From the IMG/VR virus record IMGVR_UViG_2547132418_000015: a DNA stretch of 48,662 bases; one strand, given 5' to 3'. The stretch is from a virus. Lineage: Duplodnaviria > Heunggongvirae > Uroviricota > Caudoviricetes. The notes under the pieces were generated by a model. The model saw nothing but the letters and a program-made list of their open reading frames with translations. It searched no databases and had not been told where the DNA came from. The first letter of the stretch is position 1. Every line of letters begins with the position of its first letter. Shown here piece by piece: positions 39,731 through 48,308 of this stretch. A program made the position numbers and the translations under genes.

Positions 39731-40070
39731 AGAAAAAAAATCATATTGTTTTGATTTCGCTCTCAACAGAAGGGGGATGAAGCTCGACGGGCGTGCTACT
39801 AAATCACACTGCAGCAACACGCAGACGCACTTTTGACCATCAACAGCAACTCATACAAAAGGGCTTTGAGAAAGGTATTCAACTTGCAAGACAGGAGAGT
39901 CATTCAGAAGGATTCTGATTTTAGTTACGACCAGTGCAATGCTGAGCCTTATGTATCAGCGCTCGCCGCAGCCATGTAACCGAGCGTAGCGAGCGAACTG
40001 GCGAGGAAGCGAAGAGGAACCGTTCCGGCAGATAGCTCTTACGCTCAGCACAAGAAGAGTTTTCCATCCT

Positions 40071-40565
40071 CTGTGGGAAACAGGTCAACTTTAATGGACG
40101 CTCCGGACTATGGGAAACAGGTCAACTTCGCGGACGGCCCGGACTATGGGAAACAGGTCAACTTCACGGGCGGCCGGGAGTGTGGGGAACAGGTCAACTT
40201 CGCGGACGGCCCGGACTATGGGAAACAGGTCAACTTCACGGGCGGCCGGGAGTGTGGGGAACAGGTCAACTTCGCGGACGGCCCGGATTATGGGAAACAG
40301 GTCAACTTCGCGGGCGGCCGGGACTGTGGGAAACAGGTCAACTTTGCAGACGGCCCGGACTGTGGGAAACAGGTCAACTTCGCGGGCGGCCGGGAGTGTG
40401 GGGAACAGGTCAACTTCGCGGACGGCCCGGACTAAGGGAAACAGGTCAGCTTCTCGGACGGCCCGGACTATGGGAAACAGGTCAACTTCTCGGACGGTCG
40501 GGAGTGTGGGAAACAGGTCAAGTTAGGCAAGCACTATGGGAAACACAGCAAGTTCAGTATCCCCC
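40071..40565. repeat. Array of 13 direct 36-bp iterons plus one degenerate unit, downstream of rep
   Basis: Unit TGGGAAACAGGTCAACTTCGCGGACGGCCCGGACTA repeated at 36-37-bp period. Confidence 0.9.
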
Positions 40566-40611: not shown

Positions 40612-41334
40612 CTATTGTTTTTTATCAAGAAAATTAAACAGCAAGCGACCATCTTCTTCAGTGGTATATGTTACCTTTAATGGCGTCTTCTCATTAATTT
40701 TCTTCAGAGCAGGTTCCAGGAAGGTACGCTTCATTTCAGCAATATTGTTTTTCTGCGAGGCAGGGAGCATAAACCTTTCACATAACCAGTCATGTGTGGT
40801 GATCCAGACACCAGTGCTCCGGAACTGACACAGGCTTTCATAAAGCCGGATGACACGAACACTATTAAGCTGGCCACAGTCATAGAGAGAATAGGTAGTG
40901 AACTGGGAGGTTAAGCCGACCAGGAATGGCATGACCTTGTAGTTAAATTCAATCTGCCAGGAACCCCGGCCTCGCTTCATTCCTGCTTCAGCCAGCCACG
41001 GACGTTTAACTTCTTCAAACTCACCTTCTTTTGGATAAAAGGTAACCGTTGATTCGCCCAGAGCATTTACCCCAGCCTTCACATCACGACTGGCGACAGA
41101 CGTAGCGACATTGAAGTATTTGACGTAATCGGAAACGCTGATTTTGAAGAGCGGCAATACGTCAGAGTCATCTTCCTGGCTGTCATTAAAATAGGCCTGC
41201 ATGAGGCATAACCACAGCACACGTTTTGCCTGAAGAGGCAGGTAATATGCAGCTTCGGTCAATTCGTTAGATTGCTTTATACTGGCGCGTTTTTTAAACG
41301 TTTTAGTAGCTGGCAAGAGTGCTTGAGTATCCAT
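40612..41334 (-). CDS. rep: Rep_3/RepE-family replication initiator
   Basis: ORF 40612..41493; start placed at ATG 41334 (MDTQALLPATKTFKKRASIKQSNELTEAAYYL...) because upstream codons overlap origin iterons; RLYESLCQFR motif. Confidence 0.82.
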   Translation of the reverse strand: MDTQALLPATKTFKKRASIKQSNELTEAAYYLPLQAKRVLWLCLMQAYFNDSQEDDSDVLPLFKISVSDYVKYFNVATSVASRDVKAGVNALGESTVTFYPKEGEFEEVKRPWLAEAGMKRGRGSWQIEFNYKVMPFLVGLTSQFTTYSLYDCGQLNSVRVIRLYESLCQFRSTGVWITTHDWLCERFMLPASQKNNIAEMKRTFLEPALKKINEKTPLKVTYTTEEDGRLLFNFLDKKQ

Positions 41335-41399
41335 TTCAATGCCTATGGGTAAATTTTTACCCACCCATAATGACAGTGAAAACAGAAATTGCAAGCTAT

Positions 41400-41690
41400 C
41401 GCGATACTTATCCACCGGAAAAATCTGCACTTTATCCACAAGTGGATAATTGAGAACTGAACTTGACCTCTTTCCCATAGCTTGTTGATGCATATCCCAT
41501 AGCTTGTTGACACAAAACCCACTGATACGTGATTAATTTCCCATATTATGTTTACCAGTTGCCCATACAGGCCCCCTCTCAGGCCGCACTGTACGCGGCT
41601 TTCAGGCTCCCTAAAAGATGTAAAATAAAGAAAAAGAATAAAAAAGTACTTTATAAAAATATGCCCGTGGATAAGTGGATAACCCCGAGG
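41400..41690. other. Vegetative replication origin: DnaA boxes, four spaced iteron cores, AT-rich segment
   Basis: TTATCCACAAGTGGATAA (41433-41450), GTGGATAAGTGGATAA (41666-41681), CCCATA cores at about 41475, 41497, 41541, 41563, AT-rich 41600-41660. Confidence 0.7.
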
Positions 41691-42025
41691 GGAGGTGATT
41701 TTTCAGGCATTGAGCGTAAGCAGAATTTATAAGTTTTGTTCCCTGGTGCTTCCTCGCTCACTCGGGGCTTCGCCCTGTCGCTCGACTGCGGCGAGCACTG
41801 CTGGCTCGATCATATCCGTGGCCGGAAGATACTACTCCTCCCCCGAGTCGCTCTCCAGAGCCGGCTACAGCGAGACAACCCGCACGAAGATTTCTATCGT
41901 CCCTGCAGACATATTCGAATCGTTTTTATTAACCCTGGCTTCCGTCGTGACAGAACACTACGTCCTGTAAAAGGGGGACTAAGGCCCCTGAATCACACAC
42001 CTGAATAATGCGGAGTTTTACGATA

Positions 42026-42112
42026 ATGTCATTGCTGGAAACTTTCCTGACCGCTTCTCAGGGGGCAACAATCCTGTTCCTTGCCATGCTGATTTACTGG
42101 CAAAAGCGATAA
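42026..42112 (+). CDS. Possible 28-aa hydrophobic peptide
   Basis: MSLLETFLTASQGATILFLAMLIYWQKR with GGAG upstream, followed by palindrome GCTGGCCTTTGGCCAGC; not in the ORF track. Confidence 0.25.
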   Translation: MSLLETFLTASQGATILFLAMLIYWQKR

Positions 42113-42240
42113 ATCCAAGCGGGCTGGCCTTTGGCCAGCTTCGCTGTATAAGGGGAAAAATGCGGCATATCCAGACATTTCACTAGGCAATTTGAATTCA
42201 GATATCTATGCTTGGGATCCGGTCAACAGGAGGTAACAAG

Positions 42241-42498
42241 ATGAAACTTGAAACTATACAGATAGATAATACCGTAAGGAGTGGTCTTAATTCTTTCACT
42301 GACGGGGTGATTATTCGTGATACAAAGGTATTGATCACGCTCAATCTCCCGGATGGACAGAAAACCACTATTGAGGGGGAATGGCGGCATATGTCGGACG
42401 CCAACAGGTTGTCAGAACGTATTACGATGCTTCAGCATGCGATCTATGAGCAGTATGAAGAATACAGAGCAGATATTCCCGTCAGCTGGTCCAGATAA
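42241..42498 (+). CDS. Hypothetical 85-aa protein
   Basis: ORF 42208..42498; ATG at 42241 (MKLETIQIDNTVRSG...) with AGGAGG ribosome-binding site. Confidence 0.55.
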   Translation: MKLETIQIDNTVRSGLNSFTDGVIIRDTKVLITLNLPDGQKTTIEGEWRHMSDANRLSERITMLQHAIYEQYEEYRADIPVSWSR

Positions 42499-42555
42499 CG
42501 TCTGACAGACCTCCCCGGCGAGCAGGACGTTCGCCAGCATCATTCTCCTAAGTAC

Positions 42556-46620: not shown

Positions 46621-48308
46621 GTGTGCCCGGAGTTCAGGGCGGGCATGGATGCTTAAATGAACCGCGAGTCTGTCTGGAATATTGAACCGGTAACTCACGA
46701 TGAGAAACCCAACAATCCCACCGGGTGTGACGGTGGAGAACCTGAGCGGCAGTGACCTGCGGCATGCCCGCAGGGTGATGTAACCCGCTGACAACGGGGA
46801 TTGAGGCGAGATCACTAAGCCGAGATGATCCTCAAGGTTAAGTACTGAAAGGCTGAAGAACATGAACCCGTTAATCCGCCTCTGTGGGTTGAAAACGTCA
46901 CCACGGCCTACGTGATCTGACAGGCCGTGCAGGAGGAACTGGCAGTGATACGTAAGCACTGCCGGTCGAAGGTGTTTTGACATGTATGCGAAACACCGGG
47001 GCAGCAGCGTCTATCACGCTTGCGTTGCTGACTTCTGCCAACTTGCGGCAAGCAAGGATAAAGAGTGCGACGGGCAGCCTCCTCAGTATGCCTGAGTCCA
47101 GGCAGGTAAACCGGGGAAGGTCAGCGACGGATGTTAAGGGGGCATGGCTCCGATGACGCGCTGGCTGGCGGAGCTTCCGTAGTAGTCCGCGATGGGGAAA
47201 GCCCATTACATGGCGAAGGGAAGCAGTTTGAATGTGTTTGCGACGTGAATTAACTGACCTAACGAGGTGAAGACCTTTGATAATCAGCGAAATGCAACGC
47301 AAGCTTGCCACATGGGCAGCCACCGATCCGTCCCTACGGATTCAACGGCTGCTGCGTCTGATAACACAACCAGAATGGCTGGCTGAAGCGGCGCGGATCA
47401 CGCTTTCATCAAAGGGGGCGCATACCCCCGGCGTTGATGGCGTGAACAAAACAATGCTACAGGCCAGACTGGCTGTTGAGCTGCAAATCCTCAGGGATGA
47501 ATTACTCTCAGGCCACTACCAGCCCTTGCCCGCCAGACGGGTTTACATCCCTAAAAGCAACGGCAAACTGCGACCACTGGGTATCCCCGCGTTGCGGGAT
47601 CGTATTGTTCAGCGGGCCATGCTGATGGCGATGGAGCCGATATGGGAGAGTGATTTTCATACGCTCTCATATGGCTTCCGGCCTGAGCGCAGTGTCCACC
47701 ACGCGATCCGCACGGTGAAATTACAGCTCACAGACTGCGGTGAAACCCGGGGACGCTGGGTGATTGAAGGCGACCTGTCCAGTTACTTCGACACCGTACA
47801 TCATCGACTGCTGATGAAGGCTGTACGCCGCAGGATCAGTGACGCACGTTTCATGACTCTGCTGTGGAAAACCATCAAGGCGGGACATATCGATGTCGGT
47901 CTCTTTCGGGCGGCCAGTGAAGGTGTGCCACAGGGCGGTGTTATATCGCCGCTATTATCGAACATCATGCTGAATGAGTTCGATCAATACCTGCATGAGC
48001 GCTACCTGAGCGGGAAAGCCAGAAAAGATCGGTGGTACTGGAATAACAGTATCCAACGGGGCCGAAGTACGGCGGTCAGAGAAAACTGGCAGTGGAAACC
48101 CGCGGTGGCGTACTGCCGCTATGCCGATGATTTTGTCCCCATCGTCAAAGGCACCAAAGCACAGGCGGAAGCCATCAGGGAGGAGTGTCGGGGTGTGCTC
48201 GAAGGCAGTCTGAAACTCAGGCTGAACATGGATAAGACTAAAATCACCCATGTTAATGACGGCTTTATCTTTCTGGGGCACAGGATCATTCGCAAACGCA
48301 GTCGTTAT
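46621..48308 (+). mobile_element. Group II intron 2 (5' part), inserted in IS3-family orfB and truncated by IS26
   Basis: Starts GTGTGCCCGG; about 656 nt of structured 5' region, then a reverse transcriptase ORF that runs into the IS26 terminal repeat at 48309. Confidence 0.8.
47277..48308 (+). pseudogene. Group II intron reverse transcriptase/maturase, C-terminally truncated by IS26
   Basis: ORF 47277..48335 with HTPGVDGVNK, YIPKSNGKLRPLG, YCRYADDFV motifs; last residues are read from the IS26 terminal repeat. Confidence 0.85.

Follow-up and report, generated by a model that had tools for sequence, protein, structure and literature searches.

The window analysed here is a 48,662-nt stretch of DNA, in which the interval from 40.6 to 42 kb constitutes an IncR replicon with repB, iterons, an AT-rich stretch and tandem DnaA boxes, and the sequence from 40.6 to 44 kb is 100% identical to that of typed IncR plasmids such as pCFSAN061769_02. 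The repB gene (40612..41337, minus strand) encodes a Rep_3-type initiator with a likely start at ATG 41337. Public records place this start at 41478 and the mechanical open reading frame (ORF) reaches 41493, which makes the coding sequence overlap the first iteron and three DnaA boxes (TTATCCAC, TTATCCAC, GTGGATAA; 41408..41449) located between the iterons and the likely start. RepB is 32% identical to the RepE protein of the F plasmid (E 1e-41), and since this alignment opens at residue 12 of the short form (from ATG 41337), the annotated repB N-terminus probably exceeds the true one by about 47 codons. The origin iterons have a 22-bp register (TCCCATAGCTTGTTGA plus degenerate copies; 41464..41577) and are followed by an A+T-rich stretch (41612..41662), presumed to be the DNA-unwinding element as it occupies the same position as in F ori2, with 66% identity, and by the tandem DnaA boxes (GTGGATAA GTGGATAA C; GTGGATAAGTGGATAAC) at 41667..41683. 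Downstream of repB there are 12.4 copies of a 36-bp repeat (40074..40521, consensus TGGGAAACAGGTCAACTTCGCGGACGGCCCGGACTA), which are the 'repB iterons' of the IncR literature (PMC9412624). Every unit of this array contains a TTCCCA(C/T)AG motif similar to the 22-bp iterons of the origin, and the array probably serves as an iteron set for copy control and incompatibility, comparable to incC in F.

Outside the tandem DnaA boxes, the string CTTCCTCGCTCACTCGGGGCTTCGCCCTGTCGCTCGACTGCGGCGAGCACTGC is found at 41749-41801 on the plus strand, within a segment (41738-41810) that a sequence-only reading had likened to a primosome assembly or single-strand initiation (ssi) site. The string is part of a 67-nt core (PAS-1, 41741..41807, minus strand), a conserved block present beside several origins, which is matched by a covariance model with 72.8 bits (E 5e-17). 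Together with an upstream extension (41713..41740) that is less well conserved than the core and carries an invariant GCGTAAG (41716-41722), the complete element extends over about 90 nt (41713-41807). The plus strand of the window is its CTTCC... strand, and by homology with ColE1 the strand matching the active (displaced L) strand of the ColE1 ssiA site would be the minus strand. PAS-1 lies close to the origin, 65 nt outside the tandem DnaA boxes and approximately 90–140 nt from the A+T-rich region, and the earlier estimate of about 60 bp to the boxes was therefore close to the 65 nt that separate them from the string. Beyond PAS-1 there is a small IncR-specific ORF, followed by a resD-type tyrosine recombinase gene. 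The interval 42100-42550, between the shared origin flank and resD, is an IncR-specific insertion when compared with F, and includes a 96-aa ORF at 42208..42498, recorded as a hypothetical protein starting at 42241, for which a Pfam search gave no match.

The resemblance to a segment neighbouring ColE1- and p15A-type origins, noted at first by eye, reflects real homology. The ColE1 record (NC_001371) contains exact copies of CTTCCTCGCTCACT and GACTGCGGCGAGC on one strand, with a spacing that differs by 1 nt, in a block located ~120–170 bp past the origin in the leading-strand direction (as set from the Rfam RNAI match on the opposite strand) and next to a DnaA box. Smith-Waterman comparison of 41700-41850 of the window with the whole of ColE1 gave a score of 56, which was not reached by any of 200 dinucleotide-preserving shuffles (mean 23.3, sd 2.3, maximum 35), and the alignment extends over ~90 nt at 66% identity. 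It begins at the GCGTAAG motif ~30 nt upstream, beyond the string originally singled out, and this motif is invariant in PAS-1 of IncR and F, in ColE1, and in the second copy of the element in IncR and F (PAS-2, described below). The blocks GCGTAAG, GCTTCCTCGCTCACT and GACTGCGGCGAGC are identical between IncR and the ssiA sites of ColE1, pMB1 (pBR322) and p15A, and the p15A flank agcagaatatgtga has its homologue in the IncR/F sequence agcagaat(a/t)tataag (agcagaatttataag in IncR). The reading had taken the ColE1-type segment to be PriA-dependent, and the literature does place the PriA-dependent n'-pas/ssiA there (PMC3167613), with an 82-nt stem-loop ssi close to oriV described for ColE1-like plasmids (PMC5935869). 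A DnaA box is close by in both systems, but is located on the other side of the element in ColE1, and the central 20 nt diverge and form another hairpin. Furthermore, the ColE1 origin is RNA-primed and Pol I-dependent and functions without Rep protein or iterons, unlike that of IncR.

Searches beyond ColE1 showed that the element is shared with several other origins. Positions 41699-41806 (108 nt) are 92.7% identical to the ori2 flank of RepFIA plasmids, including pEK499 and F itself, positions 41712-41807 are ~90% identical in IncFIB(K) plasmids, and the core (41741-41807) is 95.6% identical beside the rep_cluster_1418 origin, so that a block conserved at 90–96% is found next to the IncR, F (RepFIA), IncFIB(K) and rep_cluster_1418 origins, with both flanks diverging. 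A search of the plasmid collection found the element in >5000 sequenced plasmids, and with a sensitive search the matches were mostly in other replicon types rather than in ColE1, while phage records contained no match to the element. It is missing from the feature tables inspected, although the PLSDB tables among these list mainly protein-coding genes. In F, the order of A+T-rich region, tandem DnaA boxes GTGGATAAGTGGATAAC, ~65 nt spacer and core is the same as in IncR, as is the orientation of the core, with a Rep_3 initiator gene on one side and resD on the other, and a second inverted copy beyond the rep gene. The two replicons themselves are different, with unrelated iterons and no more than 32% identity between RepB and RepE. 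Compared with F, the IncR core has a 1-nt deletion in the central hairpin that abolishes the XhoI site, and its downstream flank diverges directly after 41806.

The F ori2 site is of particular relevance, as a primosome assembly site was found there experimentally by Imber, Low and Ray in 1983, as cited in PMC4627060, where XhoI and BglII sites are named for it with reference to the 1983 work. In F, the only XhoI site of the interval is located inside the homologous core, and the BglII site ~135 bp off, in the A+T-rich region; from these positions, the site of 1983 almost certainly corresponds to this element and is the homologue of the IncR one. The likeness to a primosome assembly or ssi signal is thus borne out by 93% identity to an origin flank with a reported site, and homology extends to both experimentally defined members, the pBR322/ColE1 L-strand site and that of mini-F ori2, whose experimental boundaries are taken here from secondary sources and general background. 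We consider it likely that the segment is the IncR copy of a phiX174-type (PriA-dependent) primosome assembly site or single-strand initiation signal. By its sequence, it belongs to the family that comprises ssiA of ColE1, p15A and pMB1 and the site beside F ori2, and its orthologue is the primosome assembly site of F ori2. This identity would explain why one block is common to replicons with initiators of 32% identity. In the accessible literature we found no description of a primosome site in IncR plasmids, and no detailed discussion of that of F ori2.

The segment had also been described as hairpin-rich, a description which stands for one closing stem and not for the folding energy. Minimum free energy (MFE) folds of either strand, and of a longer version, were no better than those of shuffled sequences (z -0.2 to -0.8). 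The ColE1 site likewise folded at chance level (z -0.3 and +0.2), and folding free energy therefore does not discriminate for or against the proposed function. In contrast, a comparative alignment of 36 distinct variants supports a closing stem between a 5′ arm GTGCT (41746..41750) and a 3′ arm AGCAC (41794..41798), which is equally placed in ColE1 ssiA and kept there through compensatory changes. Five versions of this stem are present across the families (CCGCT/AGCGG, GTGCT/AGCAC, GCGCT/AGCGC, ACGCT/AGCGT and CTGCT/AGCAG), with the first found in ColE1, p15A and pMB1, and the second in F, IncR and FIB(K). Two of the five stem pairs covary (CG 22, GC 11 and AU 1 for one, CG 25 and UA 11 for the other) and one-sided changes are absent; these two are the informative ones of eight pairs tested, the remaining pairs being invariant by ascertainment, with the two large conserved blocks fixed by the search patterns and only the closing stem and central part free to vary. 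In two chimeric loci (L114 and L132), a core of one type is joined to the other type's stem, and the pairing is kept. Overall, 99.3% of all cells were paired, compared to 91.4% in shuffles (0/500 reached the observed value) and 25–62% when the partner was slid.

Inside the closing stem, a G+C-rich hairpin CGGGGC-TTC-GCCCTG (41763..41777) is present in both MFE and centroid folds and is restricted to F/IncR-type cores, with a different sequence replacing it in ColE1-type cores. Its covariation is weak, with a compensatory change in one variant (L071) and single disruptions in several others (L188, L131). An extra helix proposed by RNAalifold (columns 39–43 with 51–55), which depends on G-T pairs, was rejected, as its columns hardly vary and alternative pairings compete with it. 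The closing stem is without wobble pairs, and the asymmetry of G-T versus A-C elsewhere is ambiguous as to which strand is active. A minority of variants (L009, L045, L058 and L132) have GTGAG instead of GTTCG just before the 3′ conserved block. GTGAG is the perfect complement of CTCAC, which is invariant in the 5′ block, and an alternative helix may thus form in these variants.

The covariation bears directly on the possibility that the element acts as a duplex, either by binding a protein such as ResD (at an rfsF-like site), RepB, IHF or some regulator, or by acting as a promoter element of the neighbouring genes, as its position between the origin and the resD operon and its palindromic parts, readable as dyad-symmetric operators, might suggest. 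Compensatory changes 48 nt apart fit pairing within a strand rather than a protein-binding dyad, the segment shows no similarity to the RepB iterons, a scan for promoters and terminators was empty within the segment, the core is kept where resD is absent and umuC follows, and the homologous ColE1 element has an assigned single-strand function. We therefore regard a duplex function as highly improbable. A ResD rfsF site was rejected specifically, since rfsF has been mapped to the interval from resD to vagCD, beyond resD as seen from the element (PMC9412624), and the core persists without resD. The segment is also crossed by two ORFs (41695..41970 and 41736..42008), but a coding function was rejected because of the 1-nt indel between the IncR and F cores and the end of conservation at 41806. 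A search of Rfam with 41300-42300 gave no match, which together with the indel and the empty promoter and terminator scan argues against the element being coding sequence, a promoter or a known RNA.

A second copy of the element was detected upon scanning the whole window, without filters, with the covariance model built from the variant alignment. This diverged inverted copy (PAS-2, 39953..40046) is located between the 36-bp array and parA, and was matched at 39953-40016 on the minus strand with 45.8 bits (E 6e-10), all other matches besides PAS-1 being at noise level. Its CTTCC strand is the minus strand of the window and the ColE1-equivalent active strand would thus be the plus strand, and like PAS-1 it has an upstream motif (GAGCGTAAG). 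PAS-1 and PAS-2 share 62% identity, and each has ~65% identity to ColE1 ssiA, yet both are 92% identical between IncR and F, which indicates that they are old paralogues and that both have been maintained. The equivalent copy in F (locus L007, 9530-9624, plus strand) follows the incC iterons and precedes sopA, so that the two sites bracket the basic replicon both in IncR and in F; in the F record NC_002483 they are at 48024-48087 and 49560-49623. A second copy is likewise present in two IncR-like metagenomic contigs, and IncFIB(K)-type loci showed a single copy only.

Alignment of the IncR and F regions showed that conservation is strongly local. Identity is ~45% at the nucleotide level in the rep gene (32% for the protein) and ~45% in the iterons, 66% in the A+T-rich region and 84% in the DnaA boxes and spacer, peaks at 88–90% in 41713-41806, which is the best conserved block of the region, falls sharply to 28% in 41806-41846 at the 3′ edge of the element, and is ~80% in resD. 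Such a profile, with 60–90% identity from resD to the DnaA boxes versus ~45% in rep and iterons, is a mosaic pattern, and as recombination of the backbone is frequent in this plasmid group (PMC9412624), the element could be a non-functional relic of a recent exchange of the resD-to-DnaA-box module between F-like and IncR plasmids. We consider this very unlikely, since conservation within the shared region is highest in the core, exceeding that of the resD coding sequence, and ends sharply at the 3′ edge of the core; moreover, the core persists beside other origins with unrelated spacers and downstream genes, the changes in its closing stem are compensatory, and its 62%-identical paralogue PAS-2 is itself 92% conserved between IncR and F.

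The genomic contexts of the core were extended by pattern scans of genome, metagenome and viral collections, which gave ~190 further loci with dozens of distinct variants. Tandem DnaA boxes are present 55–66 nt from the core in 23 of the 29 distinct contexts of the F/IncR type, with spacer and downstream sequence diverging. In six contexts a partition gene and umuC flank the core, and neither a rep gene nor DnaA boxes are near, so that the core is usually, but not strictly, a component of an origin. Contexts of this kind (sopB/parB to umuC; L083 6198-6261 and L047 5725-5788, and also L188, L131, L087 and L142) come from Enterobacteriaceae and metagenomic contigs, and the absence of rep and DnaA boxes holds within 135 nt of the core. 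Weak extra matches to the model (~22 bits) were seen upstream of parA/sopA in L083, L188 and L142.

These contexts are relevant to a further explanation, in which the element is a single-strand initiation signal that serves mainly for complementary-strand synthesis after entry of conjugative or mobilised single-stranded DNA, rather than for vegetative replication. Signals of the ssi type have been reviewed as priming sites which convert transferred single strands (PMC7690428), the ColE1-type plasmids carrying the family are mobilisable, the two copies are on opposite strands, so that a transferred strand would always have one, and some cores are away from any rep gene or DnaA boxes. Nevertheless, we think a role mainly in transfer unlikely, as the 55–66 nt distance to origin DnaA boxes in 23/29 contexts and the bracketing of the basic replicon by the two copies in IncR and F both point to an origin-linked role, IncR plasmids are without a relaxase or transfer genes of their own (PMC9412624), and the known transfer-associated ssi of F is of a different type and located in the leading region (PMC7690428). 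The IncR element is, in our assessment, an ordinary, unannotated and accessory component of the replication origin.

The function of a priming site depends on the strand that is active, and here the ColE1 precedent applies in part only. The active strand of ColE1 ssiA runs 5′ to 3′ away from the origin, with the primer extended back, whereas the ColE1-equivalent strands of both PAS-1 (minus) and PAS-2 (plus) run toward the origin. With this opposite orientation, the ColE1 role of providing the first lagging-strand primer on the displaced strand is not transferable to IncR, although membership of the family, as assigned by sequence, stands. If the same strand is active, the two sites would be on the leading-strand templates of outgoing forks, which are equivalent to the lagging-strand templates of returning forks.

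A possible mechanism can be proposed from these arrangements. The element would be inert as duplex, and once exposed as single strand may fold via the 5-bp closing stem and internal hairpins. From the family to which it belongs, we infer that PriA would bind the folded strand and recruit PriB/DnaT, DnaB-DnaC and DnaG, allowing a helicase to be loaded and RNA primers to be made without DnaA. A primer made at PAS-1 or PAS-2 would be extended outward, away from the origin, and DnaB loaded at PAS-1 would move inward, first to the DnaA boxes and iterons and then to repB, with PAS-2 mirroring this beyond repB; for F, the direction quoted in PMC4627060, from XhoI to BglII, is likewise inward. Opening of the A+T-rich region by RepB and DnaA, followed by outward unwinding, would expose both sites, and PriA primosomes could then prime the leading strands of the outgoing forks, load helicase for the opposite fork, or both. 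Equivalently, when forks come back into the origin region with its bound Rep protein, the primosome may be reassembled on their lagging-strand template. Minimal F ori2 replicons are not known to include this region, and mini-F reportedly persists in priA mutants, so any function is expected to be accessory. An accessory role in vegetative replication is what we infer to be most likely for the IncR element.

It is conceivable, although we hold this only tentatively, that the two inverted PriA-type sites make up a dedicated device, conserved among Rep_3 iteron plasmids (IncR, F ori2), which acts via the restart primosome of the host. Equally speculative is the way in which such a pair might work, either by priming both leading strands and loading opposing helicases, or by reloading helicase on forks that re-enter the iterons. 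If true, this role would be distinct from the lagging-strand role in ColE1, and the inverted pair would offer a simple and testable model for leading-strand starts of iteron plasmids.

Two other priming systems allow for comparison. In plasmids R1 and R100, a G-site (a G4-type ssi) downstream of oriR, reportedly described by Masai and Arai in 1989, is said to prime the leading strand after loading of DnaB. The likeness with IncR and F is one of functional analogy only, in that a single-strand priming signal is present on the leading-strand template just outside a Rep- and DnaA-dependent origin; the G-site is unrelated in sequence and recognised by primase alone instead of PriA, and it is a single site in a unidirectional replicon, unlike the IncR/F pair. 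The ssiA and ssiB signals of RSF1010 are recognised by the RepB' primase of the plasmid itself, are located ~40 bp apart inside oriV, and are essential. In contrast, the IncR/F sites are 1.7 kb apart and bracket the rep gene, belong to a family of the host PriA type, and are probably dispensable. Shared between the two is the presence of two inverted single-strand initiation signals on opposite strands at an iteron origin, as in the oriV of RSF1010 (IncQ) cited in PMC7690428.

In Klebsiella and E. coli, a large share of antibiotic resistance is carried by IncR and IncF replicons, and recognition of the element provides a label for the best conserved non-coding block of their origins. Knowledge of the family and of the F site dates back to the early 1980s, and a specialist in plasmid replication would not be surprised by the presence of such a site. 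It points to an accessory replication step dependent on host factors (PriA, DnaT), which could affect copy number, stability and host range.

Exact ColE1/p15A/pMB1 or F forms of the element were also recovered on short contigs (L012, L018, L021, L022, L029, L046 and many others) from assemblies of Streptomyces, Clostridium, Streptococcus, cyanobacteria and marine bacteria, and these matches in unrelated organisms most likely represent contamination with cloning vectors or BACs rather than genuine occurrences. Finally, plasmid unnamed9 of Klebsiella sp. WOUb02 (17.5 kb; L008/L056/L065) carries several copies of a third variant, CTTCCTCGCTCACTCAGTCGCGATGCTCCTGCCGTTCGACTGCGGCGAGC, spaced ~2 and ~3.8 kb apart, which suggests either an artefact of assembly or a small ColE1-like replicon present as a multimer.
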